Shown here: positions 2,539 through 52,739 of the stretch, piece after piece
Layout of the letters: every line of letters starts with the position of its first letter
How positions within the stretch are numbered: the first letter of the stretch is position 1
NCBI GenBank assembly: GCA_026025075.1
Contig: JAPEUI010000109.1
Span: 1-52,739, forward strand
Length of the DNA stretch: 52,739 nt
Direction of reading: 5' to 3'
DNA from: Vezdaea acicularis
Taxonomy: Eukaryota
Notes under the pieces: model-generated
Seen by the model: the letters and a program-made list of their open reading frames with translations, nothing else
Database searches by the model: none
Told to the model about the DNA's origin: nothing
Program-made: the position numbers and the translations under genes

Positions 2539-2544
2539 TATAAA
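2539..2544 (+). promoter_or_regulatory. Candidate TATA box of the C2H2 transcription factor gene
   Basis: TATAAA in otherwise very GC-rich DNA, ~115 bp upstream of the ATG at 2658. Confidence 0.45.
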
Positions 2545-2657
2545 GCCGGCCCTCCCTTGTCCTCTAGCCCCGTCTGCGACGGTCGGACCCTCCCTCCCCC
2601 CCCCCTGGTCTGCTCCATCGACACGCTTGCCGACCTGGACCGCCACCAGGAGCTGCC

Positions 2658-6427: not shown

Positions 6428-6944
6428 CATCGACGGCTAAACAGCGTTTTACTATAAAGATACGTGATTATTGCCCCCCCCCCCGAGCATCAACATTAAA
6501 CTTTTCCTCGACTTCAAGCATCGTTGCGAGACGAGCGTTCTGAACTTCTTTCTATTGTAGCTACAAACTAACACGACGTTTTCTTCACCGCTGCAAAGGA
6601 TCGAGAAGTATCGATAGTCCATCTCAATGGTCTTTTTTTCTCCTCTCTGCTGCTGCTGCTGCTCCTTTACTCTAGCTGTGCGCTCTGTCTGCTATTGGCG
6701 TAGCTACTCGAGGCTATCCAGCCGCATTTACCCTTTTCATTGATGAGCTTTCGCGCTTGCTTGCTTGCTGATAGCAAGTATGCCTCACGGCCATGCACCA
6801 CTCCTCCTCCTCTCCGCACTTACCTTACCCTCTCCAGTCGTTTGCCTCTCCCCAACCGTCTGCCTCCCATCCGGCGCGCACAAATCCTCATTGTCGTCCC
6901 CACCCCACTCACCCTCTCTCCTTCGCAGTATCGGCGGGAGGAGC

Positions 6945-17700: not shown

Positions 17701-18089
17701 CGGAGCAGCTTTACAAGCGAGCACTCCTGGGCTTTCAGAAGTATCTAAAACCAGAGCACCCTCAAATAACAACAATTTTGCATAACCTTGCACTCGTCTA
17801 CAGCAATCTTGATAGGCACTCGGAAGCCGAAGAGCTATACAGGCAGGCATTGGAAGGAGAGGAAAAGCATTTGGGTCCGAACCACCCAGAGACTCTTGGA
17901 ACAGTAAACAATCTTGCGATGTTCTACGTGAATCAAGGCCGCTATACAGCAGCGGAGCAACTTTATTCTCGAGCGCTTGAGGGCCGAAAGAAATGCCTAG
18001 GCCATGACCATCCTGAAACGCTGAAGACGTTGGACAATATTGCAACCCTCCGTCAGCTGATGAACGCTCCTTCAATGACGCCTGGTTAG
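14781..18089 (+). CDS. Fungal NLR-like STAND protein: helical N-terminal (Goodbye-like) domain, NB-ARC, TPR repeats; intronless
   Basis: Walker A GMPGLGKT, Walker B WLLIFDNV, ILFTTR, GCLPLAI, LRLHD. About 8 kinesin-light-chain-like 42-aa TPRs (LGPNHPETLGTVNNLA). N-terminal LERFGSAIDLLAQ...GLIWGSVKFLL motif. Confidence 0.92.
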   Translation: MADASSSPAFTLEEAYADAVAQLERLQQAGHLSLVDYNIVVDTRRPEELLAIINDAATRSAKSHPDAKKRVQRVVEPLLMRLERFGSAIDLLAQCSPQITGVNIVGLIWGSVKFLLVIARDIIDTFQSVLNTLDSIFKALPVLDIYHKLFGSSNIQLIRAPLVKMYAEFVAFAVQAVKSFNRSEMRTLVRSAWSSLQKELKLCIIRIEKAGEDLDKAAQIEHLNQAEQMHSNLKLEIEKQERFRREVRLYFGQTIDSRISTDFALPPLNDAPIDLLSVHFYGRNQEIELLGRLFQKKYGDSPTRCAIHGMPGLGKTQLALKYVKVSYDLKRYSHVFWISAATIERLNQGFSKMLDLLNHTDRYHPEQNTKLTAARRWLETSQSGSSRTWLLIFDNVNIDTLEFIREHLPRQNSQGNILFTTRTDGIAKAVVHAAGEQHQVLELQTPSVDDAAKLLLDHSEIDESKVPSALTKARRLVESVGCLPLAIGQAASFMKQSHKTLDDLLVLYRDEHKFQVLSWENDLTSYEQKSVTATFVSQFDTLDRLHPETSSLLKILSFLDPEGIPVDMIVEGAKTLLQQPSSTMLLDNSAQASRSVTRLAHIFKRKQRKRQTPISLSENGSSQKSDISCDPIIWSRLEALAQTPIQLQKAIQQLQNHSLVEHLLDVNTPILRLHDLIQFMVQQRVKVERTENENFILATTVVCNAFQKVRNPESSKSWVQCEMYIPHIQSLLARDSVHGQNALRLFWAGADIARYMGVRGRFEEAANILKRTLEGCERQLGPDREDTLRMRHALGNLLMNQGQYAEAEELFRRVLKRREEIDSDSPDTLRAMGGLASAHVAQGQCLEAEQLYLKVLENLEKQIGKEHPDTLRTLDGLAWVYSYQGQYSKAKDLYIRGLQGWQKLMGTNNPEALRAMRNLANVYCQQMAYSQAESLYKRALEESEKELGWDHLSTLEAAGGLAIAYSSQSRYQEAEQLYKRALLGFQKYLKPEHPQITTILHNLALVYSNLDRHSEAEELYRQALEGEEKHLGPNHPETLGTVNNLAMFYVNQGRYTAAEQLYSRALEGRKKCLGHDHPETLKTLDNIATLRQLMNAPSMTPG

Positions 18090-24400: not shown

Positions 24401-24840
24401 TGCTTCAATTCGCCGATATATGTGATCTGGACAATGACTTTTTCGCCTGCGGGAATGTTTCCAATCTTTGTTGTGAAGATATCTGATGATTCAACCGCCT
24501 GCTCTAAGAGTCCAGCGGTCTCCCCTTGCTCGATAGCTTTTTCAAAGATAGCCTTCGCCTTCTCCTTCTCTTTCACGATGCCTGTTAGCAGGCGAGAGCC
24601 AATTTTGCAGTTAAATCCGACAACACTGACTCCATCATACATGGGAAAGGTATAGCATGCCTCACTAATGGAGTTCTGGCTGCTGGGATTGATGAAACAT
24701 TGAGTGAGAACTGTTCGAGAGCTAGTTGAAAGAACTTTAGTGTGAGCGCTGAGTTCGATTTGTGGAAGATAGACCCTTTCCCAAACAGAGGATTTGAGCG
24801 TGAGGTAGTAGCATCCACATCTATAGCCATGAGAGGCCAT
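21406..24840 (-). CDS. VIT (vault inter-alpha-trypsin) + vWA domain protein (VWA5-like), intronless
   Basis: VIT motifs (YTFPMYDGVSVVGF, AKAIFEKAIEQGETAGLLEQ, FTTKIGNIP); MIDAS DRSGSM; GGTE; LLTDGE; RVFTLGIG; C-terminal IIALQSFVGSW...WELVVEKAMGWL. First ATG at 24840. Confidence 0.9.
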   Translation of the reverse strand: MASHGYRCGCYYLTLKSSVWERVYLPQIELSAHTKVLSTSSRTVLTQCFINPSSQNSISEACYTFPMYDGVSVVGFNCKIGSRLLTGIVKEKEKAKAIFEKAIEQGETAGLLEQAVESSDIFTTKIGNIPAGEKVIVQITYIGELKHDAEVDGIRFTIPTAIAPRYGSSSAELSSNLAKSSRGTGGIKIVVDVMMDEETFVRGMQSSTHPIAVTMGNTSTTSEEAPAMNKASAMLSLGSTELDKDFVISISAKETTKPIALLETHPHIAGQRALAVSLVPKFQLPPSRPEIVFIADRSGSMHSNIPTLVSALKVFLKSIPIGVKFNICSFGSSHKFLWPKSKAYDESSLKEAMRHVEKFSADFGGTEMFTPVKATLENRYRDLSLEVMLLTDGEIYNQQELFSYLNKEIIESEAPIRVFTLGIGDGVSHSLIEGIARAGNGFSQVVNNGEKMDGKVVRMLKGALSPHVTNYSLEVKYDSSADDGFELIAKVTDELHILMSDSLREPEPAPQKPISLFDENITENNSTDVSDSDGMERFSHLPSLTPPKLMQAPNKIPPLFPFSRTMVYLLMSPDTVDRTPRSVILKGHSARGPLELEIPVQILQEPGETFHQLAAKKAVQELEEGRGWVFDAKDEGGVPLKERFESKFHDMVQREAVRLGVEFQVGGKWCSFVAAESNVQEIEDRLRRLNDEKERAEKRQNSKVLSGDGDSTEGLFTPSSSGSAAFKSESSDLDTTSSARSMAQLTENMEFDNNTSSSNDMANDTASIDSSVISSGTLLSTSTGAIPRSALRLINETKYHTLTRDSNVKFRTNLMEYRQQQQAQPPDVSTRNRLAASGGGAVKEFRRGGSIMPQFQSAPVQVPGRTAGNPYSGAPSGSPYRVGKAGSLLADRSGMNSHYPPAPAAPISASHLRHSLSFGVGGGTPTLSGTPFVEPNSGIFEGTHALDSANFDPVEFEDEGHQPQPTGGYEQRIPLASHEPSTKGGVQRKKKGYQSLFANSKKSVGNVSSSGWLGRKSPSAPAPAPPAPAPAPKPSTDLDRMHVIIALQSFVGSWTLTNELLETIQVSSQASQRGLARISTDLKGVKDEDVIWATVLAIAFLQKRLAKDADSWELVVEKAMGWLEGSMTNIDEWLTEAKAVVMGA

Positions 24841-26473
24841 GGCGCGTCTAGTCGAGAGTCGCAAGGTACGTGGTGATTCAAGACTATCTACAGACAATGC
24901 AGGATTTGGTTTTGATTTGAAACCCAGGGTTGGGGTTTTGAACGGGCTTATCCACTCTTTCGAGGCCAGGATCAGCGGAATGTCTCAGAACTTCGAGAGA
25001 GCTGAACGATATTGTTCAATTGAGACCAAGACTTATCAATCGAGGGCCCCAAACTAATAGACGATGGTTTACGAATAGCACGAGATATCAAAAGGTACTG
25101 AGGAGAATGTCTCTTTTTGAAGAGGCATGAACATTTAGCAGGTATCTCTTATAGAAAGGAATATGAAATGGCAGCCTAGAATCCAGGTACGCATTCTCAT
25201 ACGCGACCAAGCTCCTGGAAAGAGCGCATTCGGGCGTCTTGTCAGAAGGCACCAGCAGACAGAATTCCGTCCCGCAACTTCGAGAAGATTGAGCCTTACG
25301 GTGCACCCTGCTCGGGATTTAAGCAAGGGTCAACTATAGTTGCCTGGCGCCGTGGCGCAAGCGAGCCGGTGCCAATTTCAGGCATCAGAACGACGACCAT
25401 TAAAATCGCGTTCGGCGGAGGAAACAGTCGTTGCTAACCCGTTTGAACTTATTTATCGATTCATGAGAAAACGGGAGAGGCCGATTCGGACAGCGGCAGA
25501 GGACTGAGGTTTTACAGTAGTCGCAGACGCAGGTGCATGTGCACGACACTTCTATCTTCAAAGGCGGTGACGAGCCCCACAAAACCCTGCCGAAGAGCGC
25601 TGCGAACTAATTTGATATTGCCGAGCCAAACTCAATTAGTACGAAGCTGCAATCTCATGAGACGTTCCCTTTACTCCCAGAAGAAGGTTCGAGTATGGAG
25701 CGGTACTGCTGCGGCCACTTCATAATAGATATTATCCGGGAGTGATTTGGATATGGATCGTGCGGCTTTTGCGCGACTGGAGCAGGACGCGCGCAAAGTG
25801 GCGGCCTCAGGGCACTATCTACCTTACCGGTAGAGTTCGCCACACATTCAAAGGCCTTCGTTGCGATTAGACGTCTCACTTTATAGCCTGTTTTTGACAA
25901 TCATCGGCAGGATATCGAAGACAAGGTAAGGTTGACGTTGTCAAGAAGATTCGCCTATATCAATAGTAGGGCAAGTTCCGGTAACTTAAGCACCGCGATT
26001 AAATTGCCGTAAAGTCCCCGTTCATCTTCAAGGCTTCAAAGATATCCCCGTTAATTGATTTCGTTTTCTATATAAATTTGGTCTGCACCAGATATGAAGC
26101 AGACTATCGCCGCGTGGGGATGTACGAATGGGGCGTAATGTACGGTTACGGATGAAAGAATTCACACCTGCATGCACCAGGTCTCCAGAAATCAGATGCG
26201 CGCCGTTTCATTATCCTATGCCAATACAAGATGGCCATTGTGTCCGAGGTGTATGCTTACTCGGAAGAACCTTGCTAGGATGCGCTTGATTGTGTAAAGG
26301 TAGTCTCAGAGATAAGTCTGGTCATCAACCATATGTTGGCTGCATCCGAATGGTCGGTCGGTCCCTCATCTCCAAGCCGGCCGTACCGGTGAAACGCGCA
26401 ACCACGCTACAGTCGGGCCCCTCCAAAGCTCTTCGCTTACAGCCCACATTCGAGACCGACGTCCTTTGGGCAG

Positions 26474-35032: not shown

Positions 35033-38000
35033 TCATTTCATCATGCTAGTTCCACCCGTCCCTATCAATGCAAATTCCGCTACTGTTGCGCCAACTGTTT
35101 CAGGACTTCCCTGTGTCCCCTCGATTTCCAGTCTCGCATAAGACCCACTCCAGATTTTCGTATCACTCGATATTGTGACGTTAGTTGTATTACCCTCATA
35201 TGGGCGTATGATGTCGTTCGTTGCTACGTCGAACGGGCTTGAGACTGATATATTGTCGACACTTATTGATACAATGACCCCGTCGAAAGCAGAATTATTA
35301 GCCAGCAACACGGTAGCTGACACTGGTGGAGCCTGGCCCCAATCAAAGCTCAGCGCGGTGACCTGCTGAGGAGCGACCGTGGACATATCAATGGTGATTC
35401 CTGTCCTGCCGGTAGACACCGGTTGCCACTTGGTGCTGGCATCGCCATCAACTGCTGCAAGCGGAAACTGACCAGCCTGGTAAGCGTCTGACGAAGACGC
35501 TGGCCGACACTGAATGATGTTCCCAGAATCACTGATTTCGCTGAAATATTGGCGGTTTTCAATGATGAGGGACGCTCCAGCCGCAAGATTCTCCACACGA
35601 CGCTCAGCCTGTCCAACCAGGATTGGCATATTCTGACCAGCATACGTATCGTTGACATAGGTGTCACTTGTCACAAACCGAGTAAGCGTCGTATGGGTAT
35701 TATTGATCGTAGCCGAGAGTGTGGCGCCACCATAGTAAAAGCGTCGGAGACGCACTTGAGGAATCTGAGGTGGAAGTGCCGGGTCCACCAGGAGGTATTG
35801 CTGATCGGTCCGCATCCCAAGCCAACCATAAAGACCTACTTGATTGAATCCCCCATGACCAGTACTGTGTCGCTATTAACATGATTTTTCGTGATGGAGA
35901 GCATGGAGGAAGCTTACAGGAACGGGAAAGCGGGATTTGTGCCCCCATTAGCGGTATAGTTGTCAATCTGCTGCTCTGAGAACTGATACCAAGGTGCTCT
36001 GGTGTAAGGCTTGAAAGCATTCAACGAATACGTATAGGCGCTACAGCCTGACAGAGACACCTCGTTTGCAATTATACTAATGATACTGTAGGTCATGGCT
36101 GGTCCGTCTGCGGACTGTTTGTTTGAATACTGAAAATCTATGTTTAGTAGCTATACCTGGGGGCTTGAGGCCTTTTAGCAATACTCACATAAGCCAAGTC
36201 CATCCGCGACTGAGCTTCAGTATAGTTGTTTGAGTAGTCCAAAGGGTATGTATTTAAGACAACATCTGCCTGTTTTACAGGTACGCTGTTGTTCATACCA
36301 TCGTACTCGATAGTAATGCCGGATGGGTCGTATGGAACTGCCACATTGCTTGAAATATTTGTCCAAGTCTCGTTAATGCCCATCCCGTAAAGACCTCTGA
36401 AATAATTCGCAGTGGCAAGGACCTTGCTTGCAGACGCCAAAGTGTATGCTCCGTTGTTAACGAAATTGGCGTATTCATCCTGTTAAGGTCAGTCAGGGAC
36501 AGTACCTGTATTTCAAAAAGTTATTCAACAAACCGGATCAGTCATGTTGATGATGTCCCATTTTTGAGTGCTACCATTGTAGTGAAGTAGTTCCGCGTAC
36601 ATGTACGCAACGGATTGGTAAATAGGCCACGCTTCGTCGTGCCACCATTGCTCATCACCAGTAATGTTGCGATGCTGGAGGAGCATCTGAGCAATGTCAC
36701 TGTTCAGATGATACTGATAATCTACACAAGGGCCGGTCCCAGTGCAGTTGCCAAAGCGCGCGCTCGTCCACGGATACAAAATCGCGTCACTTGTAAAGCC
36801 ATTGTCCAAGGCATTTTGGTGAGCTTGACCAGCCTTTGCAATTCGGTAATTAGCGATAGTTCTCGCGTACTTTGGATGAGATGCAACAAGTCCTGGAGAC
36901 ATGAAAATGTCAGCGTCCCAGAAAACAAGGCCGCCGTAGGGTTCTTCGGAAATTCCGCCCACACTGATGCTGTTATCATCCAGGCCTTTTCCTAGCCCAT
37001 CCGGAAGAGTGTTCTGTAAAAGGTAGAATGGCGTGAAGACTGAGATTATCTGAAGGTCCTGAATGTTTGGATCATTAGGAAGGGTACCGTCCGCGTTAGA
37101 GTAATCGTCTACAGACTCTCTTGGCAATAATTCCTCCCAAGCAGCTTGGTGCTCTGCGAGCAGAGCATCCCATCCTGTAGATCGAGCTGATGTGGAAGCA
37201 TTGCGGGATGTTCGCTCTGGGTTCGAGAACGCATCTGCGGAAGCGCCTCCAATATACTTGAAAAGTGTCGCCGTTTCGCCAGCTTTCAGCTTGATATCAA
37301 AGGATTGTGCAATTGTAGTCTCATTTTCAGATATATAAGCTGAATTATTGCCAACTCTTCTCGAACTCTGATTGATTGCCATCGCAGAGAAGTCGGCGGA
37401 CGACACCACGAACGCGGTAATATTGGACAGTCCGTTGGGATACACAGCAGAGTAGATCGAAGATACATTTGGGTCCATCCCTTTGTTAATCGCAGTAGAT
37501 CTGACAGCACTCCGTCCGTCTAGAATGTCAGTCACTGTGCCAATAGCATCTTTTGAAGCAGTAATGTCGGCGCGAACTGCCGCAACATTCGGCCTGCTTC
37601 GACTGACGAAAAGCGTGTATACCACACGGAACTGCGTCTGAGACCCACTTGGCGTCCATGTATACGTCCATGTTGCAAGCCCCTGCTTAGCCGACAGGCT
37701 CGAGTTGAACCCGGTTATAGTTGAGTTATTCACTGTTGCATCCAGGAAGGCACCCCCAAATTCAAACAGAATTGCTCCCCAGTGTGGTATCCCCGATATC
37801 ACACTCTCTCCGCCCTTTTTTAAAAGTTCCGGAAAGTTGGTTCGAGTTGTGTTTGGCTGCGAGTCCCAGAACCCAGCAATTGAACAGAATGTCTGCCGTG
37901 GGCTATCCAAAGGCCATCCATTGATTGGGAGGGGACCGCCATTAGGGTCAGTCAAATTCTTATCTGCCTCGTAGAAAGGTCCAGCAGCAGCCAATCCGAG

Positions 38001-38201
38001 ACCGAGATATCCATTTGCAAGGTTGATGCGCGACTGGAACTGCGCCTGAATCAACTCGTTCGTAGACAAAATCCAGTTGTTATGGTCATAGGTAGTGTAG
38101 GGCGCAGGTATATTGAAATCAGCTGCTTGCGCTCGCACATGTGTCGTGAAAGCTGCCGATACAAGTACCAGAGTGGTCTTGAAAGCTGAAAGTATAGCCA
38201 T
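35033..38201 (-). CDS. ATH1: Secreted acid trehalase, glycoside hydrolase family 65 (multi-exon)
   Basis: Signal peptide MAILSAFKTTLVLVSAAFTTHVRAQ; LANGYLG; GLVFWDADIF; YPWTSARFGNCTGTGPCVDYQYHLNSDIA; NMTDP-DEYAN; VKQADV; DGPAMTYS; C-terminal AVDGDASTKWQP. Confidence 0.92.
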
Positions 38202-39688
38202 GATCGTTGGTAAAACCGCTGAAGGCAAGTAGACCTGCAAGTTGTCCAACCTTTCTAGACTCAGGCCGTATCTCTGCGGGATATCCGAAGGTCCGGCAAT
38301 CTCTGAGGGTTCTTGAAATGCAGGAAAGACATGAAATCTACGTTCAATTAGTCATAGGGCCTTAGCAACAAGATCGCTGAGGAAAGGCGTCGTGGACGAA
38401 CATCAGCAAGACGAGGAGATATGGGATGTATAGCCAATACAGAGAGCCATAATATGGAGACCTCCTCAATCTAAACCTCTCGTTCCCCTCCCGTTCGGCA
38501 CGAAGTTGAGGACTTCCCGGAGCCATGACGCAGGTGCTGATGAACAGGAGGCACCGGTCTTTAGCGCGCAATGGCTGGCAATTTGAAGGTTGGTCCGCTA
38601 CGTAGCCTTGCGGCCACCGAGGTGGCGAGAAGTACTAAAAGCCTTGGGTACGCCCCGGCGAATGCCTTGGCATGTGGGGCAGCGCCGACACCTAGCCTCT
38701 TAACCGACGCCTTACGTCTTAGGGTGAGGGTGCGCGGGAACGGGTACGAGTAGACCTTCCAGCGTGATCAAGTGATCGTGAAATAAGAAAATGCCATCCC
38801 GCAATAGCGCCGAAGCTTGTGGGTCGAGAAATGTGGGGAAGATCTAGCGAGATCGACCCTGAACCCGATTTCATCATCGAGAGGAGAACCAGGAAATGCC
38901 GTCAAGCGCTAGCGGGAGGAAACGCAACCTTTCTCTTCTCTGCCCAATGGGACGGTCTCCATGGCTCTGTTCTCACTGAATAACCCGCTTATGTTATAGG
39001 CTTCGCGAAGTTCACGCCCAATGACGTCAGAAGCTCCGTCACTTCTGCAGGAACCAAAGGCGTCAACGGTCCCATTTGAAAAGGATAACAAAATTACAGA
39101 TTTATAGGAGGGCTGGGAGAATTTTCGTCGAATGGTCGAACGGTAATTGAGTATCGGGTGATTTTTGATAACCGTCTCATCACTCAAGGCTTGGATGTTT
39201 TTGCCAAGCTACTAAGAAAAGGAGGGAGAATGCTACGCGTTATCCCGTTGCGCATCCATTCACGTATCGTGGTCACATTGACTGCAATTTGCCTAGCTTG
39301 ACTAATAACTATCATTGATATACGTGGGCGATTCTACAGAGCTCAGCTAGTCTGGATCGTAGCCTGCACGTACTGGTATGAATTTGGTTCTTGACGATGG
39401 GCTCTAAGAATGTTAGGCTCCTGGAGACGACTTTCGCTAGTGACTCGATAACCTTAAGTGGTTTAATATAAGTCCAGAAATACTCGCCCAAAGTTCTTGG
39501 ACGTAGTTGATAGCTCACATAGAGAGGCTCTTTAACAATTGGCGTGGCATCCCAAGCTGGGGCGTTGAGTATCAACCATAAGGATCCCTTCGCTATCTCG
39601 ATGTCATTCCTGACACCCTTGTTCGATATATGAGCAAGAAAACCGAATTCCGCAAGCCCGCTCTCAAGCCAACGACCGAGCCCATGAG

Positions 39689-42600
39689 ATGAATACTCAT
39701 GGACAAGGAACTCCTCGGTACGACACGCTCCGTAAGTAGACACCAAGTACATCTTCATATATCCAATATTTGCCATGAATGAGCACTGTTATGACGATTT
39801 TCATACGTTCCTAAGTAGACTTACACTGACAATTGCATCACGTAGGGGAATCCTCGCAAGATGATGCCTCCACGACCCACTCCCCACAACTTGTACCACA
39901 TCACACAAACCACCTGGATGCGCTCTCGGATGAAGATGTAGCCCCTCATGACACATCTGCCTTGTGGGACGAGAGCGACTCGGATTCTACGGGACTGGGA
40001 GATGATAAGGCACACAATGCAAGCAAGGAGAAAGCTCGCAACAAACTCCATGAGGTTGAACATCGACGCGAGACAGGGAACACAACACCTTCGGATGACA
40101 CCTTGGAAGGTTTGCTTCCGCGCGACAAGCAAAGGAGGACTGCACTATATGATTATGCTGCAGAGAAACAGATGAGTCACGCGGAATCGAAGCTCTTCTA
40201 TCAGCGTAGCCAGAATGAAGCTCAAGAAATCGGAGGAGCTGCCTCATTACAAAATGCTGACGGGCTCACTCGAGCAATGACGGCCCCAAGTATGGTTGGA
40301 GAACCTGGCACATTGAGTCGGACTGGGAGTCTTAGGTCCAGACAAAGCACTCGGAGTTTCATCCACACCCAAGGGTCTATCAAATCAGGTGTTCCGACCA
40401 GCTTGGTAAACGAGAACGACCTTGCTGGAATCACAAGCATGCATGAGCCAAGTCAAGGCAATGATGATCATGAGCACTCCAGCTACATAGCGACAGTGGA
40501 GCGCTCTGCCGGCCAAGGCGGAAATGTTGCAAGAAGTCAGACCTCCAATGTTGGGCTGTCTCGTGAACACGAGGATGTGGGTCTTCATGCTCAGAGCGCT
40601 GAGGCGATGGAAGCTGCAATTGGAGTAGGAAACACTAGCGGAGGCTTTGCGGACAGAGATGGCAACATCAAGACAGAACTCGGCGAAATATATACTAGGA
40701 TCCAGAGAGTTCTTGACCTTCGTCACAAATATATTCGACTTTCTTTACAAGGACCTAATGATAACCCGAAAGATGATCCTGCCTGGCAAATATATCCGCC
40801 ACCTCCCGAGCCTGCATGGGAGGATGAGAGGGAACGTTACGGGGCCAACACTGGGACAGATAGCATGACCAACAGTGGAATACTCGCATCTGAGTCCGCC
40901 ACACGCTTCAACAGCGAGATTGGTCGTCCGCTCAGCTCTACAGGCTCACAGGCAAACCTTCGGTCTCCTCTTGCACCGCTGCGGAGGCGAAAACCTGGTC
41001 AGAACATAGGTGAAGATTTTGACCTCGCCGACTTATTGATACCAGAAGCAAGTGAGATGACCTTCCAGCTCGATGAAAATAGCGTATATCAGGTATACGA
41101 AAACGCTACGTCCGCTCAACTTGATACTCCTGTCGTGAATATCCCCACGCTTCGCGAATTCTACATGGATCTAGATCAAATATCGAACGTATCTTCTGAT
41201 GGTCCCAGCAAGAGTTTTGCATTCAGGAGGCTGCAATACTTGGAAGGCAAATTCAACCTTTACATGCTGCTCAATGAGTACCAAGAGGTAGCCGACAGTA
41301 AACGGGTGCCTCACAGGGACTTTTATAACGTGCGTAAAGTCGATACGCATGTGCACCATTCAGCCTGCATGAACCAGAAACATCTTTTGCGCTTTATCAA
41401 AAGCAAGATGAAGAAATGCCCCGATGAAGTTGTCCTGGTTCGGGACGGCAAGCATCTGACCCTTCGCGAGGTTTTTGAAAGCATCAACTTGACAGCGTAT
41501 GACCTTAGCATAGATACGCTCGATATGCATGTAAGTTCGAACAAGTATTGTCCACTTCTCCATTTGCCTGACATTTGAGTAGGCTCACACCGATTCCTTT
41601 CATCGTTTCGATAAATTCAATCTGAAATATAACCCTGTAGGCGAGTCGCGACTTCGTGGGATCTTCCTCAAGACCGACAACTTTATCGAGGGTCGGTATC
41701 TGGCTGAGTTGACAAAAGAAGTCATATCCGATCTCGAATCAAGCAAATATCAGATGGTCGAATGGCGGGTTTCGATCTATGGGCGTGAGATAAACGAATG
41801 GGATAAACTAGCAGCTTGGGTTTTGGACAATAAATTATTCTCACATAACGTCCGCTGGCTTATCCAAGTCCCGCGTCTCTTTGACGTCTATAAAACAGAG
41901 GGTCGCATGGAAAACTATGAGCAGGTTGTTATCAACTTATTTCGGCCGTTGTTTGAAGCCACAAAAGATCCTTCTAGCCATCCAAAACTTCACGTGTTCC
42001 TGCAAAGAGTCATTGGCTTTGATAGCGTGGATGATGAGAGCAAAACAGAGCGTCGTCTTTACAAAAAGTTCCCAAGTCCCAAAGACTGGAATACGAAACA
42101 GAATCCTCCATATAGCTATTGGATCTATTACCTCTTCTCTAATATCGCATCTCTTAATGTGTGGCGAAAACAGAGAGGATTCAACACTTTCCTGCTCCGG
42201 CCACATTGTGGAGAAGCTGGTGGAACAGAACATTTAGATGCCGCTGCTCTCTGCTGCCATAGCATCAGCCACGGCCTTCTCTTACGAAAAGTACCGTTGC
42301 TGCAATATGTTTTTTATTTGGAGCAGATAGGCATCGCGATGTCTCCATTGAGTAACAACGCTCTTTTCCTTGCCTACGAAAGGAATCCCTTTCCCCAATA
42401 TTTCAGGCGGGGCCTTAATGTGTCGCTCTCGACTGATGATCCACTCCAGTTTGCTTTCACCAAAGAACCTCTGATAGAAGAATACTCTGTTGCTGCGAAC
42501 ATTTATAAGCTGAGCGCTGTCGATATGTGCGAGCTCGCAAAGAACTCAGTGATGCAAAGCGGCTATGAGCACGCTGTAAAGCAGCGATGGTTAGGCCCTG

Positions 42601-43309
42601 ATTACAACCTACCTGGTGCTCTGGGTCACTCCATGGCAAAAAGTAATGTCCCTGATATTAGGGAGGCGTTCCGATATGAGACACTGACTCAAGAGCTCTT
42701 AATGTAAGGTCATGAAAGCTTCAAATGGACATGCTAACAAGATGTAGGGTTAATCGCTACAGTTCATCAAGTTCGAATCAAGCAACGGCATCTTCCAATC
42801 TACCGCAAAGACCCAACTTTGCTCAACAACCACCAGCGCCACAGATGAATAACATAAGTTCAATTCCAGCTCATATTTCGCCAGTCATTCCCGCGCAACA
42901 AGCTCGAGGGCCTCAATCGCCATCATTCCCTGCGCAACAGGCACGGCTTCCGCCTTCTTCCTCGGCCGTAGATATGACTACACTCAGCGGCCGGGAGAAT
43001 GTTTCAATTGGAGCAGCTGCGCTTTCTCGGCGGCAGTCAAGCTCCGTGGTACCATCAACCCCAGCACAAGGTCCAACAGCAAGATGGCCTGCGGAGGGAA
43101 TAGCGCATGCCGGGATGATAGCTGGTGAACCGAGAATATTTCCGGGCGTTGTGAGTAAAAGTGCAAGAAGAGACAGTATACGCCAAGGGAGTATGTCGGA
43201 ACGAGATAGAGAAGGCTTGGCCAGCCAGAGGGCTAAGATTCCCTTAAGCTCCGTTGGAACCAGAGACGAACAGCAAGAGCAGATCGAGAAGTCTGAAGAA
43301 CTTCAATGA
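39689..43309 (+). CDS. AMD1: AMP deaminase (start tentative; introns ~39732-39845, 41531-41582, 42704-42747)
   Basis: [65 protein letters not shown] signature motifs. Confidence 0.96.
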
Positions 43310-43562
43310 ATAGCGACATATCTATTATCACTTATCCTAATCCTCATTAATCCAGAGTGCTATCTGCTACAGTATCATAGTTGCTGTGACCAAGCTCGCT
43401 AAGATATTGGTTATGCTCCTGTGGTAGTCGCCCTTGCCGGAAGTTGCCGTGCTCTCTGGAGCGCCAAGACTTTCGAAGAGAACACCTTCGGAATATCCGC
43501 GCGGTACTCCCCTGTCACAGTGTAATTCAACTCTTCACTTTTTCAACTCCCCGTCGGCCACC

Positions 43563-46277
43563 ATGGCTGTTGTTACCCCAGTGGATCCATTCCTTCAGGG
43601 GCACACAGGTAGAAATACACGTGGTCTTCTCAGGCTCGTCATTCTTTGCACAATTGCGGCTGCAGCTGTAGCAAGTAGGCTGTTTAGTGTTATTAGTACG
43701 TACGCGCAAGGTCGAAGGAAAGGCTTCATAGGACCTCACCAATGGAGACTTGACGGAGATTAATCTCGTATCGTAAAAGTTACTAACTGATACTCTCCAC
43801 AACATAGGATTCGAGAGCATTATTCATGAATGTATGTTTTCCCAGCAGACCAAGTCGAGCAAATGGCTCCCTATACCTGCACTAAGAGCTTGACACCTCT
43901 GAGCCAATCTCATTTATGTAACTCATAGTCGATCCGTGGTTCAACTTTCGAGCGACGAAGCATTTAGTAGAGCATGGATTTTACAGTTTCTGGGACTGGT
44001 TCGACGATCGTAAGCCGCCCTTTTCATATTCCTAGCCATTAACATGAAAACTCAAAGACATGAGCAAAATCTCTTCATTCCCTCAAGGTGTGCGCATAGC
44101 TTTGAAAAAGCTAAACTTACCACTATCTACAGGCACATGGCATCCGCTCGGCCGAGTGACTGGAGGCACTCTTTATCCTGGACTCATGGTTACAAGTGGA
44201 GTCATCTACCACATCCTACGTTTCCTTACGATTCCTGTCGACATTCGAAATATATGTGTCTTGTTGGCTCCTGCATGCTCTGGATTGACAGCGTTAGCTA
44301 CCTACCTGTTAACGTCGGAGCTGTCACCTTCGCCCTCTGCTGGCCTACTAGCGGCCGTCTTTATGGGAATCGCGCCTGGCTATATCTCAAGATCAGTGGC
44401 TGGAAGCTACGACAATGAAGCTATTGCCATATTTCTCCTCGTCTTCACCTTCTATCTATGGATCAAGTCCGTGAAGAATGGTTCTGCCATGTGGGGAGCA
44501 CTGACTGCCCTTTTCTATTTCTACATGGTTTCAGCATGGGGTGGTTATGTCTTCATCACGAACATGATACCACTTCACGCCTTTGTCCTCATTGCCATGG
44601 GGCGATTCAGCCCTAGGCTGTATGTGAGCTACAGCACATGGTTTGCCTTAGGAACCCTTGCCAGTATGCAAGTGCCATTTGTAGGTTTTCTACCCATTCG
44701 GAGTAGTGAACATATGTCTGCGCTTGGTTTGTCTTCCATTTGATCGAGAGGGGAATATCTCTAATTGGAGAATAGGAGTCTTTGGTCTGATGCAGTTGGT
44801 CGCTTTTGTTGAGTTTGTGAGACAGCAGGTACCAAGTAAACAGTTCCAGACACTTTTGCGGGCACTGATTATCGTCATCTTTGTCGTGTCTATCGGTGGA
44901 CTAGTCCTCTTGACCGTATCGGGCGTGATAGCCCCTTGGACAGGGCGCTTCTACTCATTATGGGATACTGGCTATGCGAAAATCCATATTCCAATCATTG
45001 CATCCGTTTCGGAGCATCAGCCAACGGCCTGGCCAGCCTTCTTCTTCGACCTCAACATGCTGATCTGGCTTTTCCCGGCGGGCGTATATATGTGCTTTCG
45101 AAACCTTAAGGATGAGCAGGTCTTTATCATCATCTACGGAGTTCTATCAAGCTACTTTGCTGGAGTGATGGTTCGGCTGATGCTGACCTTGACACCTGTT
45201 GTTTGTGTAGCAGCAGCGCTAGCATTGTCTAACATACTCGATACCTATTTGACCGTGGATTCTCCATCAGCCGAGACGTATGCAAATGGTAATGGGTCGG
45301 GTGATATCCCACCGATCAACACCACCTCTTCAACAGCTTCCAAGAAAGCCGCCACCCATGACGGACTGCGATCAACTCGAGTTCCCTTTATTGGGGTATT
45401 CTCAAATGTTTCGAAAGCAACAATCGTAGGAGCAATCACCTCCTACCTTCTTCTCTTCGTGTTACATTGCACCTGGGTAACATCGAACGCTTATTCATCC
45501 CCGTCTGTTGTCCTAGCCAGCCGGCTACCTGATGGTAGTCAGCACATCATCGACGATTATCGAGAAGCTTACTACTGGCTTCGGCAAAATACCAAGCAGG
45601 ATGCTAAGATAATGTCATGGTGGGACTACGGCTATCAGATTGGTGGTATGGCAGACCGCGCGACGCTTGTTGATAATAATACCTGGAATAATACTCATAT
45701 TGCGACTGTTGGAAAAGCCATGAGCTCCCGAGAAGAAGTTAGCTATCCCATTATGCGGCAACATGAGGTTGACTACGTCCTGGTAGTATTTGGTGGTCTT
45801 CTCGGATATTCTGGAGACGACATCAACAAGTTCTTATGGATGGTGAGAATTGCTGAAGGTATCTGGCCAGATGAAGTCAAGGAACGAAACTTCTTCACTG
45901 CTAGAGGGGAGTACCGAGTTGATGATGAAGCGACACCCACGATGAAGAACAGTCTCATGTACGTAATAATGAATGAGGGCCAAGGATTTTACTAATGGAG
46001 TTGTAGGTATAAAATGTCGTACTACAACTACAACAACCTCTTTCCTGCTGGACAGGCTCAAGATCGAGTACGAGGCTCAAAATTGCCGACCGAAGGGCCG
46101 CAGCTGAATACCCTAGAGGAGGCGTTCACGAGCGAGAATTGGATTATTCGGATCTATAAGGTGAAAGATCTGGATAACGTGGGCCGAGATCACGCTAGTG
46201 CGGTTGCGTTTGATAAAGGCAACAAGAAGAAGAAATCGGCGGCGAAAAGAAGAGGGCGTATCTTAAGAGTTGATTGA
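43563..46277 (+). CDS. STT3: Oligosaccharyltransferase catalytic subunit STT3 (multi-exon)
   Basis: [81 protein letters not shown]. Confidence 0.97.
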
Positions 46278-46618
46278 TTTCTGGGATAAGAAAATTAGTG
46301 TAAAAGTATGTAGAGTAACAGTAAAAATCTTGCATAGGACTCTCTCATTTGCTGCGTAGTAATGGGTCAGACCACCATAGTCAAGCTGAGATGCCCCAAA
46401 GAGCCGGTATTGACGCATTCTAGTGCTGCATCTCGTTATTGATGATGTGACACGATTAGGATTATGGGAATTTCTTCCAGCAGCCAGACGGCCTAGAAGA
46501 TGGTTGCATACCGGGATGACGTGGTTGTAGTGGAGGGACGGCATAGATGCTAATTGGTTATTTGTGCATAAGCGAGCATTAGTATGCGCTTCTAATGCAA
46601 CGCAGCCTATTAAACGAT

Positions 46619-46686
46619 GAATAAACTGTCAAGCGCGCTTTCGTTTCGCTTGGCGTCAAGGACTAACGGCGCTTGACGGTTTATTC
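46619..46686. repeat. 18-bp inverted repeat (hairpin) upstream of the orphan ORF
   Basis: GAATAAACTGTCAAGCGC (46619-46636) and GCGCTTGACGGTTTATTC (46669-46686) are complementary at 17/18 positions. Confidence 0.7.
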
Positions 46687-47034
46687 CTCATCTCATTGGT
46701 TACACTTCAATTTTTAGTGTGCTCTATCTATGGTAGCGACTATACAACTTCTGATAACCTGTCGTGTCATTGAATCATTGGATAAAGTAAATTGCGCATG
46801 TATGAAAATTGCTTGTGTTAATCTCGCTTAAGCTAAATCAATTCGCAATTGGTTAGTTTCATTGAATCAGACCTAACAAAAATGGAATAGGCAGTTTTCA
46901 TATCACGCTGGACGGTTTATTCTACTTGTGATTGGTTATTATAGACACGCCACTATAAGCCATAAGTGGCCTTCCTACCATGTCAATAAATATCAATGCA
47001 TCCGCCATAGCATTTGATGTCTCCCATCAAAATC

Positions 47035-50000
47035 ATGGGGCGAAAAGCAAAGACTCAAGCAGAAAAGCTGCAGGCTCAACAAGCACGGCAAAATCATTAT
47101 CAACTTAGAACCTTGAATCAGCCCTATTTATCAACACCACTAAGCGTCTTACCAGAATCCACATCATCATCTATTCCAGCTGTTTTGGCTCCATCAATTT
47201 CCTCACCAGTTTTGCATGCTGCAAGTGAACAGAATGAGCCTTTTGATGGACTTGTCAATCTTTTTGCTGATGCCCAACTTGATGTTGAGTCTAATCCAGA
47301 AGCAGATCATCCTCTTTTGCCGGCAGAAGCATCTGAAGAATCTGATATTGACTTAAATATTCTACTAGATCATCATTCAACTACTTCAGATGAAGTCAAT
47401 TCGGAATCCAATGAACTTCTAAATCTATCATTTGCATCAAATCAGGAACCATCAACTATTCAAGGCCAATTAGATGTTGCTGATGAGGCCAGACTTGAGT
47501 TGAAAGCCTTCAGACAACCTTTAGAGCTTTTGGACAGCTCAGATATCTCTTCCAGTATAGCGTCTGATGTCTTGGAAAGAGACGATGATATTGCAGACAC
47601 TCAATCTTTTACATTGAGTGAAACAAATTCAGACGATGCTTTAGGATTGGATCATGAAATTGATGAACGACTACAAAAATCCTGGAGCACCACTTGTTCT
47701 TGCAATGCAGGAACAAACTTATCAGACGAATCAGGCTTGGGATTTAAGGAAATGTGTCAATATTGGAATAGGCATATGCCCAGAAGAGACAGTCCTAGTC
47801 GCTCTAGTACCTTTCCGATAAATTATGAAAATCTGTTACCAAGAGATGGAAGACACGGAGACTATCGGAACATTGCTTGGAAAGCATTGTTAGCGGGGGA
47901 AGATGGAATTCCTCCAAGTTTAAATGTTGCCTGTTCGGAAATAGAGTCTGGTATCCCTATTCAAGAATCTTCTCTCCAAATATCTCGACGTTGGGATGTA
48001 GACAGCTTGATAGCAGAGGTTACCAGTTTGGGCGTACATCGGGATGGATTTGATCTAGCCTATCGGCCTCCATACTTGCGACGTGTGACCCAAAATCCCT
48101 ATGTAATATTTCAAGGAAAACGCCTGCATCAGATAAAAAACCAAAGGTTAGGACATGGACTTGCCTCTGCCGGATTCAATTATCAGTGCCATGTTTTCTT
48201 TCCTCATATGCCTGTTCTTCATCGGGATGGAACTCATTTGACAGATGTACAACAGGAGGAATGGATTGACAACATTATCATTCCGTCCTTGCGCGAAAGT
48301 TGTCCAGATGATATTCTGCAACATCATCCTCGAAGTTTTGCAGAAGTTAAAATCAAAGCAACCGCCAAACAAGAGTGGCATCCTACCGGTGTGCAACAGC
48401 CAATAGATCTTCGATCTTGCATTCCTGAGGAGTATTTGGATTGTTTTTGGAATCTTGTCTTGCAGAAATGCAACAGCCCTAGATTTGCCATTTTCCGGGA
48501 GGTGTTTTTGATTGTGCAAGGGCACAATCTAAAGCTCTTTACCAAGAAGCTTGATCCTCAACAGGTTCGACAAGATTATTTCCGTCATCTTCGGCGATGT
48601 TTTCATGCCAATGAACGGTACATGCCTGCACAAAAATGTTGGATAGATTTAGGACTGGAAGACACTCCAGAACCATTTCAGAATGAAGCAGTAACTCTTT
48701 TGCGAAAATCCAAATGTTGTGCCAGCTGGAATATTCAATTTCAAGCTGTGGATCAAAGATCATCACTTCTTCGCACTCAAGAGTTTCCTTGGGCATTAAC
48801 TCGAGATATCATGTCAACTCGTGCTGAAATATTGCCAACAAACAAATGGCATGCCAAAGGCGGAATTGCTTTTAACAAAGCTTATAGCCTTCATAAAGAT
48901 CTCTTTACTACTCCAGTAAAAGGATTGGTTCCATTTGATCATCAGCAGCTGGAAGGATTAGCATATGATCAAGACCTGCTCAACCGTTGGTATGGGTTGA
49001 GCTATCGGGGCAGGCAAACCTCCCATCTAGACAAACGCCAGCATCTGCTAAAGATATATCAACATGCTAAACAACGGGTAAATCAAGCGATATGTTCTAC
49101 CATTGATACCTGCTTTGGTGTACGGCAAGAATATCGAATGACTCTTGAACGTTTTTCCCGCCTACAGTTAGATGCTGCTTTAAATGACGCAGCAAGCAAC
49201 GATCCATATCGACATCGGCCCTATTATGTATTTCGAACCAAAGATGTCAATACATATATTGGATATGACATCAATCGATGGTTGATGTGTCTAGAAGCAT
49301 TGATCTGTCAAGTTAATCCAGGGCCCATTGGACTTTCTCCTGCATCTGCAGAGCAACAGATGATCAATGGTGTGATGGTTAGCGCTATCATCAGAACATT
49401 GCATTCCAACTTGGGAAATGTACAAAAATTGCTGCAAAGATCTATATGGTTGCATGATTGGAAAGTCAAATCACTTTTGGAAGAAAATGAAAGTGAATTA
49501 GATGAGAATGAAGAATTGAATGAAGTTTCAACACGTCTAGGGCTGGATTATTGCAAAAGTTTAGAACAGACTGGTTTAGCTTAGTTGCCCTCAGATTTAA
49601 TCCTATGGGAAGGTCTTCCAATGTTCAAGCCAGATATCATTCCTCGACTAGGACTAGCAATCAATGGATTTGGTAGACAAAGAAACCAAACCTTGAGGAT
49701 TCAGAATCTTCTTCAGCAAGAACATCGAGAGTTGGCGCTTTTTCGGGAATGGTTGCAGCGGTCACTGACTTTTCCTAAGGAGAGCTTGGATCCTCATGCG
49801 CGCAAATGGGTATTTCAACTAGGAGCTGAATTGATCATTCAATCCTATCAACTGGAGATCCTTGATATTCTGCGTCAACGTTCCAAGGAATTGGATCCAA
49901 GAATAGACATAGTCCAAGAACGCTTTGATGCAATACAGTCTAAAGGCCTAGAGGGATTTAGCTATGATCTTTTAACAAGACTTCTGGAGATGCCGCCGCA

Positions 50001-50655
50001 TCTGATCCTAGTTAAAAAAGCCGCCCGTCGTGGTGTGAGCCTTTTGGATCAATACAATACTGGTACCTGGATTGGCCGCATTGCTGGACTGTTTGGTTTA
50101 GATGATAACATGCCTGGCGCAGTCAAAAAACGTGGATGGGAACACAGCCCATTTCGAGAATGGAAACGCCGGCTTCGACATATTGTCAAAGATGTGCTAG
50201 GACCAAAGACATCAAAAAGCTTTGAAAAAGTGATCAATCTTCACGCTTGCCAAAAGATGTGGATCATACCGCAGTACAATATTGACAAACTCTCTGTCAT
50301 ACGAACAGCTTCAAAGCACAATGCGCCCAAGACTTTTGAAATGCTGCAAGAGATGGAAACATTGTCTCGGACCAACTGGGTTATCCCGCAGCTGAATCCA
50401 CTGTATTTTGGAATGTTTGAAGCTTTGGAGCAATCAGTCCAGCAGGAGAGCCGTCTTAGTACTGGATCAAATCCACATTGGCAAGAAATTCATGAACAAC
50501 TGACGAGAGCAGATCAGCTTCTTCTTTTGACTGAAGGTGACATTTATTCTGAAGACTCCGGATTAATCAAAAATCCAATACGATATGGCATAGACACCAA
50601 GCTAAATCTAGCTTTAGAATTCAAAAATCAACTGGAAAGAAACAGAGAAAACTGA
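47035..50655 (+). pseudogene. ~1200-codon intronless orphan ORF interrupted by a single in-frame TAG (49582-49584); probably mobile-element encoded
   Basis: ORFs 47014..49584 and 49585..50655 abut in the same frame (TGLA*LPSD). More AT-rich than neighbouring genes and flanked by repeats. Confidence 0.75.
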
Positions 50656-50749
50656 TCAATGTTTTGCGTGGTCATCATCGTGGAATGGATTTCAATTAGT
50701 CAATTTTGATAGATTCAATGTTCTGGCAGCAGTTTCCAGACATTGAGTG

Positions 50750-51610
50750 AAGAATTGCCAATTTTGAATCTCCAAGTCCTCTGGGATCAGTTTTGCGTCA
50801 TCGATCACGGATTTGTCGATTCTCAATCTGTTGATCCTCTAATATCAATCGAGATACATCAACTCTTGACATCAACTTTTTTGATCTGCCAGTTTTCACC
50901 CTCTGGATCATCCGGCATTGGTTTTGACTTGTCGATTTTTACCCTCTTGACTTTTTGAAATAGATTCCGAGTCATCCATGATGAACCTGCCAATTTTGGC
51001 CCTTCTGGTCTTGTGGCATCAGTTTTGTGTCATCGATCACGGATTTATCGATTCTCAATCTGAAGATCCTCTGGAATTGATCTTGAGACATCAACTCTTG
51101 AGATCAACTCTTGATCTGCCAGTTTTCACCCTCTTGATCATCCGGCATTGGTTTTGACTTGTCAATTTTTACCCTCTTGGCCTTTTGAAATTGATTCCGA
51201 GTCGTCTTTCAGAAATCTGCCAATTCCAGCCCTCCTGGTCTTCTGGCATTGGTTTCGCGTCATCGATCACAGATTTGACGATTCTCAATCTGATGATCCT
51301 TTGGAATCGATCTTGAGACATCAACTCTTGACATCAACTCTTGATCTGCCAGTTTTGACACTCTTGATCTTCCGGCATTAGTTTTGACTTGTCGATTTTT
51401 ACCCTCTTGGCCTTTTGAAATTGATTCCAAGTCGTCTTTCAGAAATCTGCCAATTTTGGCCCTCCTGGTCTTCTGGCATCAGTTTTGCGTCATTGATCAC
51501 GGATTTGACGATTTTCAATCTGATGATCTTTTGGAATTGATTTCGAGACATCAATCTTTGATCTGCGAACTATTTTTACCCTTTAGGCTTTCTGAAATTG
51601 ATTCTGGGTT
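50750..51610. repeat. ~230-bp tandem repeat, about 3.5 diverged copies
   Basis: Anchor atcagttttgcgtcatcgatcac recurs with substitutions at 50786, 51018, 51248 and 51478 (periods 232, 230, 230). Confidence 0.92.
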
Positions 51611-51689
51611 ACTGATCATTGATTCTTGTCTTAACACTTAAAGTTTGTCGGCATAGCTTTTAATTTATTTATCTCTACTCCCTCGATCT

Positions 51690-52335
51690 GAAAAGCACTT
51701 AGGCCCAATTAGGCTGTCACAAATAACATTTTCCGCCTCAAAGCCCAAATGTCTTTATTAAACAATTCTATTGGTCGTTTAGAAACGGGTCTAAACTCAA
51801 GACGGCCTAAGTGCTTTTAATAAGCAGGGGTATTTCGTCGTTGTTGAAAGCACTTAGGCCCGATTAGGCTGTCACATGCGACATTGCCAGCCGGACGGCC
51901 GGGATGTGTTTATCGAACAATTCTATTGGCCATCAGGAAGCGGGTCTAAGCTCAAGACGGCCTAAGTGCTTTCAATAAGCAGGGGTATTTCGTCGTTGTT
52001 GAAAGCACTTAGGCCCGATTAGGCTGTCACATGCGACATTGCCAGCCGGACGGCCGGGATGTGTTTATCGAACAATTCTATTGGCCATCAGGAAGCGGGT
52101 CTAAGCTCAAGACGGCCTAAGTGCTTTCAATAAGCAGGGGTATTTCGTCGTTGTTGAAAGCACTTAGGCCCGATTAGGCTGTCACATGCGACATTGCCAG
52201 CCGGACGGCCGGGATGTGTTTATCGAACAATTTTATTGGCCGTCAGGAAGCGGGTCTAAGCTCAAGATGGCCTAAGTGCTTTCAATAAGCAGAGGTATTT
52301 TGTCGTTGTTGAAAGCACTTAGGCCCAATTAGGCT
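51690..52335. repeat. 155-bp tandem repeat (4 full copies plus a partial) carrying 17-bp inverted arms
   Basis: GCACTTAGGCC at 51695, 51850, 52005, 52160 and 52315. Arms TTGAAAGCACTTAGGCC and GGCCTAAGTGCTTTCAA. Confidence 0.97.
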
Positions 52336-52612
52336 ACCATCTATGAGTCATCGTATATTGAAATCAAAGTGATAAGGTATTGAATATATGACGGTGATAA
52401 TATTGATATGAATCCATCAGGTTGTCTTTCAAAATTCAAGCCAAATTCTTGGTTCAAATTTTCTATAAGTAGACGTAAAGTTTTCCATGTTAAAGTCTTT
52501 AAAATTGATCGCTATTAACTCTTAAAGACTTCCATATAGCCATTCTCTTATCGCTCATCATTTCCAAAGTCTATACTATTCCTTTAAGAAATAGTTCCTC
52601 TTTACGCTTATC

Positions 52613-52739
52613 ATGGAGTCTTATTTTGAAAATGTTGTATCGTCTGCATCCCATCTCAACGATCACATTATACCAGACACCACACAACTGACGGTCGAAG
52701 AACTCAAAGCCGTTCAAGAGTCAATTCAAGATTGTAGCT
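52613..52739 (+). CDS. Possible 5' end of a gene running off the window
   Basis: atcATGG context; frame open to the window end: MESYFENVVSSASHLNDHIIPDTTQLTVEELKAVQESIQDCS. Confidence 0.3.
   Translation, partial: MESYFENVVSSASHLNDHIIPDTTQLTVEELKAVQESIQDCS

Follow-up and report, generated by a model that had tools for sequence, protein, structure and literature searches.

Rep_trans initiators nick DNA at hairpin origins; HUH enzymes do likewise for Helitrons, Replitrons and IS91 elements. The enzymes that move eukaryotic DNA transposons belong to the DDE, tyrosine recombinase, HUH Rep and Polinton-type classes. As given in excerpts of the work of Carr et al. (PMC4797284), the Rep_trans active site assembles Y191 with R189 and K193, the series R140-D142-A144-D146, the pair R212-E214 and D46, of which E214, D142 and D46 serve as metal ligands on separate strands, and the same excerpts report no structural neighbour of Rep_trans other than TBP. 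According to excerpts of a 2026 paper (PMC13107129), Rep_trans enzymes appear confined to bacteria, and Rep-Arvir (DUF7845) of archaeal viruses and plasmids, which adopts the TBP fold, is tied to them through structure alone; it is described there with a catalytic tyrosine and acidic residues, an essential hairpin beside its gene and marginal Foldseek hits to the PDB. The present analysis concerns a contig from a metagenome-assembled genome (MAG) of the lichen-associated fungus Vezdaea acicularis (JAPEUI010000109.1), whose entire length of 52,739 nucleotides is referred to as the window, and in particular a large gene of an unnamed family, the hairpin upstream of it and the repeated unit in which both reside. 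In our reading, the DNA from 46439 to about 51.6 kb, and possibly further, constitutes a slightly decayed copy of a low-copy, dispersed, single-gene element of V. acicularis, and we consider it probable that this dispersed element is a selfish one.

Copies and boundaries of the repeated unit

The features of the unit and of the DNA to its right are the following, with positions counted from the first letter of the window.

46439..51690, plus strand: copy of the repeated unit (candidate mobile element), left end sharp, right end approximate
46553, 46695, 46848 and 46931, plus strand: ATTGGTTA boxes, four of the window's five such octamers lying within 386 bp, against 1.08 expected in the entire window
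46606..46699, no strand assigned: family-conserved palindrome (hairpin) of the form CCTAT-N10-ATAAAC-stem/32-nt loop/stem-GTTTAT-N10-ATTGG
46777, plus strand: ATTGGATA, within the same box cluster (46553..46938)
46912-46938, plus strand: second copy of the right half of the palindrome
47035..50655, plus strand: member gene of the unnamed family, with 1206 codons, a premature stop among them, and a start (MGRKAK) conserved in relatives
47962..49239, plus strand: alpha/beta domain (residues 310-735), predicted to form a Rep_trans/TBP-like curved beta-sheet
49582..49584, plus strand: premature TAG at codon 850, which divides the frame into 849 + 356 codons
50756..51558, no strand assigned: 230-bp tandem array, 3.5 copies, 87% matches, non-coding
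51692..52335, no strand assigned: 155-bp tandem array, 4.2 copies, 93% matches

The multi-copy state of the unit is evident from a protein cluster at 90% identity, which unites gene models of the V. acicularis MAG on three contigs (52739 bp, i.e. the window, 12203 bp and 58820 bp) with one ENA protein. Relative to the window copy, the paralogs, whose gene models are split or truncated, differ at 9 of 746 and at 30 of 607 aligned residues. In the comparison with the paralog P0159, 22 of the 30 differences are concentrated in residues 790-828 of the window frame (about 49402-49518) while the remainder is nearly identical, and this clustering suggests a mosaic or gene-converted segment.

The left end of the unit was traced on Logan contigs from four sequencing runs, aligned on positions 38000-52739 and comprising two moss metagenomes of one study (X1 and X2), "organism A" (X5) and an air metagenome (X6). 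Those contigs of X1 and X2 which carry the STT3 gene are ~97% identical to the window through 46438 and then continue with 27 unlike letters, and another contig of these two runs joins a different flank at 46438. The STT3 contig of X5 is ~93% identical to the window and features 173 unlike letters after 46360, and a second X5 contig (record 19, 17268 bp) terminates in 46438-47010 and bears 16.7 kb of unrelated DNA before that. Altogether, at least three different flanks adjoin the boundary at 46438/46439 in related strains or species, representing two organisms. The divergence of the STT3 flank, in conjunction with the alternative flanks at 46438, therefore places the start of the unit at 46438/46439, ~160 bp past the STT3 stop, and not at 46550 as put forward in the original prediction, which had been made from the letters of the window. 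Summed contig depth amounts to 28-38 over the unit against 9-10 over the flank in X1, and to 17-27 against 6 in X2; across 46856-51283 it is ~3-4 times that of the flank, a depth sum which is not equal to a copy number.

The repeated unit takes in the hairpin, the gene and the 230-bp array. A joint that connects 50746 to 51444 and skips 697 bases is present in both X1 and X2; other copies therefore possess three fewer 230-bp units, and the array, in which neither strand holds a long open reading frame (ORF), is variable in length and internal to the unit. Only an approximate right end can be given, and the true one may be located further on, even past the contig end: cover by Logan contigs reaches the bin 51284-51775, and none extends over 51776-52739, which leaves no evidence either way on the 155-bp array. 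This array is only a candidate part of the unit; a relative of its palindrome occurs elsewhere in the window. The 155-bp repeat is not palindromic itself; instead, its 20-nt inverted termini form 57-bp palindromes at the unit junctions. The related 57-bp palindrome at 6280-6338 (also 6388-6431), which shares a 20-nt match at 95% with that of the junctions, resembles a short palindromic repeat whose dispersal does not depend on the large ORF. To the right of the array, an open frame of 42 codons (MESYFENVV...) at 52613-52739 continues off the contig end and may start the next gene.

These results modify the layout that had been envisaged originally, namely a hairpin and two arrays flanking an ORF. 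The cluster of hairpin and ATTGG boxes is real, comprising a strong hairpin at 46606-46699 and the four ATTGGTTA boxes within 386 bp, and so is the 230-bp array; both are internal to the unit, the hairpin as a family-conserved site, and membership of the 155-bp array is unsupported. The latter array exists at 51692-52335, although it had been announced as an array of palindromes. The original proposal was to test whether homologs are multi-copy, non-syntenic and flanked by palindrome arrays; the first two properties were found (three MAG contigs, non-syntenic copies) and the third was unsupported.

The gene, its family and the upstream palindrome

In public annotation, the large ORF corresponds to KAI9854323.1 (M1824_000416, here P0158) of the V. 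acicularis MAG. At codon 850, which is TAG in the window copy, the paralog P0159 of the same MAG encodes Trp, and all eight aligned homologs feature L, W or F; since the paralog has Trp and the homologs read through, the stop is ascribed to a nonsense change of TGG to TAG. In M1824_000416, the GenBank model, this TAG is excised as a 21-nt "intron" (seven codons, 49573-49593), which is too short for a real fungal intron, and the gene model therefore masks a pseudogene. Hence, the originally reported ORF of ~1200 codons stands as a frame of 1206 codons at 47035-50655, but not as an open one. From its start ~600 bp past the left boundary, the gene reads into the unit, and no second gene, be it for a helicase or for a capsid, was found within the repeated unit.

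A word-seeded search with the large protein yielded 10 relatives, and a profile of eight relatives retrieved 1405 clusters (50% identity) at E<=1e-3, 954 at E<=1e-10 and 442 at E<=1e-30 from a space of 1.84 billion cluster representatives. Pfam matched none of the two window pieces (E<=1), none of the first 10 homologs and none of 20 long members, in agreement with the original view that the ORF belongs to no known transposon superfamily. PHROGs and NCBIfam gave no match below E 0.19, PDB sequences gave none against the profile at E<=10, and the ESM Atlas provided no usable lead for the large protein; fused longer forms of the protein were not found, which constitutes weak evidence. The named members are hypothetical proteins of Vezdaea, Xylographa, Flavoplaca, Gallowayella, Variospora, Teloschistes and Pseudogymnoascus. 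On the basis of these searches, the family appears to be large, unnamed and spread across Pezizomycotina, its named members stemming from Leotiomycetes and several lichen fungi. A further member, P0072, is labelled as belonging to a Terriglobus roseus MAG (4314-bp contig) and is probably encoded by a fungal contig that was mis-binned with a bacterium.

Among intact members, the ratio of nonsynonymous to synonymous substitution rates (dN/dS) was estimated at 0.153 (994 codons) and 0.134 (875 codons), values that indicate purifying selection. Further relatives were found in 25 metagenome loci (L numbers) using an alignment of 8 sequences. In L020 (9799-12819), C>T or G>A changes make up 389 of the 489 differences that separate it from L014, GC content is 0.40 as opposed to 0.51, and TpA/ApT amounts to 1.56, a classical signature by which L020 is recognised as a family copy degraded by repeat-induced point mutation (RIP). 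RIP requires repeated DNA. The loci L001 and L010 share 88% identity over the ORF and ~1.2 kb upstream of it, and their downstream flanks are unrelated, i.e. the copies are non-syntenic; the end of similarity at the ORF end suggests a single-gene unit in that lineage. The multi-copy state in the genome, the different flanks at the left boundary and the RIP-mutated or non-syntenic relatives together bear out the earlier expectation of something other than a single-copy syntenic host gene.

Helicase genes were noted beside some family members. In L002, a large co-oriented gene with OrsD and DEAD/Helicase_C domains (6787-11535) adjoins the member, and in L011 a co-oriented SNF2 helicase gene (670-4149), syntenic in L017, lies beside it. 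The helicase genes of L002, L011 and L017 could be partners or chance neighbours; the helicase sits outside the stretch common to L001 and L010. Repeats in L008 were considered as a counterpart of the window arrays and rejected, being intron-containing coding repeats.

The palindrome of the window lies ~340 bp upstream of the start codon. Its 31-nt arms (46606-46636 and 46669-46699) are 81% complementary, and in DNA folding it reaches a z-score of -5.4, with 0 of 200 shuffles folding as well. Position 46627 is C in all other Vezdaea-type copies, which gives a perfect stem, and the window copy has therefore acquired a C>T change. The N-terminus MGR(K/R)AK is recognisable at five loci (the window, L008, L016, L018 and L019), and in four of these (the window, L008, L018 and L019) a palindrome is located 90-430 bp upstream of the start, with the consensus CC(A/T)AT-N10-ATAA(A/C)-[stem-loop]-(G/T)TTAT-N10-(A/G)TTGG; in L016, which is degenerate, the right half alone was discerned by eye. 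A relaxed form of the pattern matches 4 times in 251.8 kb against 0.03 expected from Markov resamples, figures that overstate the significance because the pattern was devised after the sites had been seen. In L019, the upstream palindrome is tandemly duplicated (740-792 and 847-899), the second copy being degenerate. A conserved terminal sequence upstream of the palindromes of the window, L008, L018 and L019 was not found, local alignment scores lying inside the shuffled range.

Conservation covers the outer motifs and their spacing. The inner stems (TGTCAAGCGCG, GCGTCAAGCG, AGGGCCA and CCGT) vary in sequence and length and nevertheless remain paired. Pairing was counted in register by a script, as MAFFT/RNAalifold misaligned the five palindromes and predicted no pairs. 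The persistence of pairing in divergent inner stems speaks in favour of a hairpin or cruciform, and not a duplex binding site, as the target of selection.

Predicted fold and proposed mechanism

AlphaFold2 models based on family alignments reached a predicted local distance difference test (pLDDT) score of 88.3 and a predicted template modelling (pTM) score of 0.82 for the full-length relative P0002, and of 94.3 and 0.90, respectively, for residues 310-735 of the window protein. In the predicted architecture, helical domains come after an N-terminal alpha/beta domain that contains a long beta-sheet. In an exhaustive VIA-align search of the domain model against 48161 chains, Rep_trans structures (PDB 4CWC and 4CIJ) emerged as the best structural matches. 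Neither HUH nor helicase structures occurred among the fold matches; the DDE/RNase-H fold (KDZ, hAT, MULE, Tc1) lacked a Pfam match and was likewise absent from the fold matches, such absence from the fold list not being proof.

Conservation in the family is highest, in P0002 numbering, at D80xD82, D297xGxE301, K374xY376...K380 and R456xE458xR460, of which D297, Y376, R456, E458 and R460 are invariant in 53 sequences. All of them are situated on predicted strands, in the same order as D46, R140xD142xA144xD146, R189xY191xK193 and R212xE214 of Rep_trans, and an alignment of five plasmid Reps displays the counterpart motifs SIDRIT, RxDxAxD, RxYNKK and WRxE. The window copy retains all these conserved residues, and its putative catalytic set would comprise D321, D323, D538, E542, K615, Y617, K621, R697, E699 and R701. 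The original statement that no nuclease motif is visible in the ORF accordingly needs revision, a Rep_trans-like motif set being present.

From these similarities, a mechanism can be proposed in which the N-terminal alpha/beta domain would act as a Rep_trans-like (TBP-fold) tyrosine endonuclease. Tyr617 in the motif K-A-Y-S-L-H-K would be the catalytic tyrosine, and a metal ion would be held by carboxylates on separate strands (D321/D323, D538/E542 and E699). The enzyme may recognise the upstream palindrome as an extruded or single-stranded hairpin and nick the DNA there, whereupon the unit would be mobilised or copied in a rolling-circle or copy-and-paste manner. That the unit represents a mobile or selfish element of an undescribed kind, equipped with such a Rep_trans-like tyrosine nickase and a hairpin site, is a reading for which we see even chances.

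Several observations weigh against mobility of the unit, against the assignment of its enzyme or against the role proposed for the hairpin. With regard to the general criterion for a transposable element, a shared left end at differing sites was seen, and a right end, a target-site duplication and an empty site were not found with the available contigs. No empty site, for which the region downstream of STT3 had originally been suggested, was found: neither the 27 letters that X2 carries past 46438 nor the first 30 of the 173 letters that X5 carries past 46360 recur in the window at <=3 mismatches. Comparison of the left end with 50656-52739 for terminal inverted repeats gave just chance matches of 13-20 nt. 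Moreover, the copy number is low (~3-4), the unit is devoid of a helicase, and purifying selection is also compatible with a host gene. The palindrome could be a promoter element, given its CCAAT box and TATA-like box, and scans of up to 3 kb of upstream DNA did not find it in the L001 group (L001-L005 and L009) or in L010, L013, L006, L011 and L020; either it is not universal, or these loci miss their true 5' ends. As for the fold, Foldseek returned nothing at E<=0.001 from PDB and BFVD, hhalign assigned a probability of 0.2% against pT181 RepC and of 0.1% against the alignment of five plasmid Reps, and Rep_trans (PF02486) was matched by Pfam neither at E<=1 in the window pieces nor in 30 homologs. 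In addition, the motif correspondence is only a pattern match, drawn after the fold hit.

Competing explanations and relation to described systems

Part of this evidence would also suit a lineage-expanded host gene family, for instance of a TBP-fold DNA-binding regulator, which arose by segmental duplication, uses the palindrome as an autoregulatory or bidirectional promoter and is represented in the window by a recent pseudogene; we regard this explanation as unlikely. It is in line with a dN/dS of 0.13-0.15, the low copy number and the failure to find a terminal inverted repeat or target-site duplication, as well as with the location of the palindrome 90-430 bp before the start codon, its CCAAT and (T)ATAAA motifs and the synteny of family gene and SNF2 helicase gene in L011 and L017. 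However, a single left boundary occurs on at least three flanks in two organisms, and the STT3 flank of the closest strain diverges exactly there; the relative L020 is RIP-mutated, the 88%-identical copies of L001 and L010 occupy non-syntenic sites, and 1405 clusters at 50% identity are far above the expectation for a single host gene. Furthermore, a promoter has no need for the covariation of the inner stems, and invariant Asp, Glu, Tyr and Arg residues on beta-strands are enzyme-like.

The inward orientation of the gene, ~600 bp inside the left boundary, would also be expected if it were the first gene of a much larger cargo element, comparable to a Starship captain, which runs from 46439 past the contig end and includes the arrays and the next ORF as internal parts. 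In keeping with this, the letters past the boundary in X2 and X5 occur nowhere to the right in the window, and if they are host DNA, the insert passes 52739. We nonetheless hold a larger cargo element to be rather improbable, as the ORF lacks a DUF3435 or tyrosine-recombinase match (Pfam) and the similarity of L001 and L010 ceases at the ORF end, suggesting a single-gene unit in that lineage.

Very little probability is attributed to a subtelomeric repeat unit that, like the Y' elements of yeast, spread by recombination between chromosome ends. The copy does lie within the last 6 kb of the contig with tandem arrays adjoining, its copies are several and near-identical, residues 790-828 forming a variable, mosaic segment, and a helicase gene stands beside the homolog in L002; on the contrary, (TTAGGG)3 with <=2 mismatches is absent from the window and from the 25 metagenome loci scanned, the housekeeping genes for STT3 and AMP deaminase directly adjoin the unit, and the same left boundary recurs in differing contexts. 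Even less probable is the integration of a plasmid-like or virus-like replicon that left its Rep gene and hairpin origin in the chromosome, for the resemblance of a Rep_trans-like domain with an adjacent hairpin to pT181 and archaeal Rep-Arvir replicons is opposed by the lack of a capsid or other gene in the unit, an empty BFVD search at E<=0.001 and the chromosomal setting of the copies with host flanks.

The surroundings of the unit are those of a eukaryotic contig, ordinary fungal genes being identified by Pfam along the window:

14781-18089: intronless NB-ARC/TPR NLR-type gene of 1102 residues with DUF7708, NB-ARC and TPR repeats
21406-24897, minus strand: gene for a VIT-VWA protein
39833-42707: AMP deaminase gene
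44060-46277: STT3 gene, with Pfam PF02516 on 44706-45992

Genes for an amino-acid permease and a GH65 hydrolase also reside within the window. GC content is about 0.46-0.49 across 44000-46500 and drops to 0.39-0.44 past 46500; per segment, it amounts to 0.48 in AMP deaminase plus STT3 and to 0.41-0.42 in 46439-50655. The early observation that the DNA becomes more AT-rich directly after STT3 is thereby confirmed (from about 0.48 to 0.40-0.42), along with the identity of STT3. The window copy itself carries no RIP signature (TpA/ApT 0.50; (CpA+TpG)/(ApC+GpT) 1.84), and RIP therefore does not account for its low GC content.

Returning to the reading of the unit as a dispersed element with a Rep_trans-like nickase, we tentatively suggest, at somewhat less than even confidence, that it exemplifies the first eukaryotic mobile-element superfamily in which a TBP-fold, Rep_trans-like tyrosine endonuclease acts on a conserved hairpin, and which is widespread and diverse in Pezizomycotina. 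If so, an enzyme superfamily which the literature confined to bacteria before its archaeal relatives were published in 2026 would reach the third domain of life, and a new class would join the short list of eukaryotic transposition mechanisms. The "hypothetical proteins" of more than 1000 clusters from genomes of ascomycetes and lichens would gain a name and a testable function, and fungal elements would be linked to bacterial plasmid and phage initiators, conjugative relaxases and the archaeal Rep-Arvir initiators. Genes of the family, now annotated as host genes, should be masked or labelled as mobile DNA. Among the titles listed by literature searches, none concerns a Rep_trans-type enzyme in eukaryotes or fungi, and none of those listed for new transposon superfamilies in Pezizomycotina deals with such an element; the one listed paper that mentions V. 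acicularis is a lichen inventory.

Among described systems, Starships resemble the unit in being fungal and in placing the mobilising gene first at the 5' end, pointing inward; they differ by their captain, a DUF3435 tyrosine recombinase which the fungal ORF does not match in Pfam, and by a length of tens to hundreds of kb. Helitrons and IS91/ISCR elements share with it the subterminal hairpin, the want of terminal inverted repeats and, as far as the proposed mechanism holds for the fungal element, mobilisation by a tyrosine nuclease. On the other hand, they employ an HUH Rep, accompanied by a Pif1-like helicase in Helitrons, neither domain being found in the fungal protein, and the Helitron hairpin is located at the 3' end. 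Replitrons, as characterised in excerpts of PMC10288648, come closer in several respects: they are eukaryotic, possess a single Rep-type gene without a helicase, lack terminal inverted repeats, feature palindromes near their ends and are proposed to move by copy-and-paste. Their endonuclease is of the HUH type, however, their termini bear short direct repeats, and their hosts are plants, algae and protists.

The closest structural counterparts of the N-terminal domain are the Rep_trans (PF02486)/MOBT proteins, i.e. pT181 RepC/RepD and RepSTK1 (4CWC, 4CIJ). Four types of motif (D; DxA/GxD/E; basic-x-Y-N..K; RxE) appear in the same order on beta-strands, predicted ones in the fungal protein, and the fungal gene adjoins a hairpin as its potential site of action. 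In contrast to these proteins, the fungal family displays no sequence or profile similarity to Rep_trans, its domain is about twice as long owing to helical insertions and is followed by ~470 residues of helical domains, its tyrosine motif reads Y-x-x-x-K instead of Y-x-x-K, and the element is chromosomal and resides in a eukaryotic host. Rep-Arvir, likened here by description from excerpts of PMC13107129 to a fungal side that is predicted, combines the TBP fold, a tyrosine with acidic residues, a hairpin adjacent to the gene and marginal Foldseek hits in a similar manner, yet in archaea, whereas the fungal family is eukaryotic.

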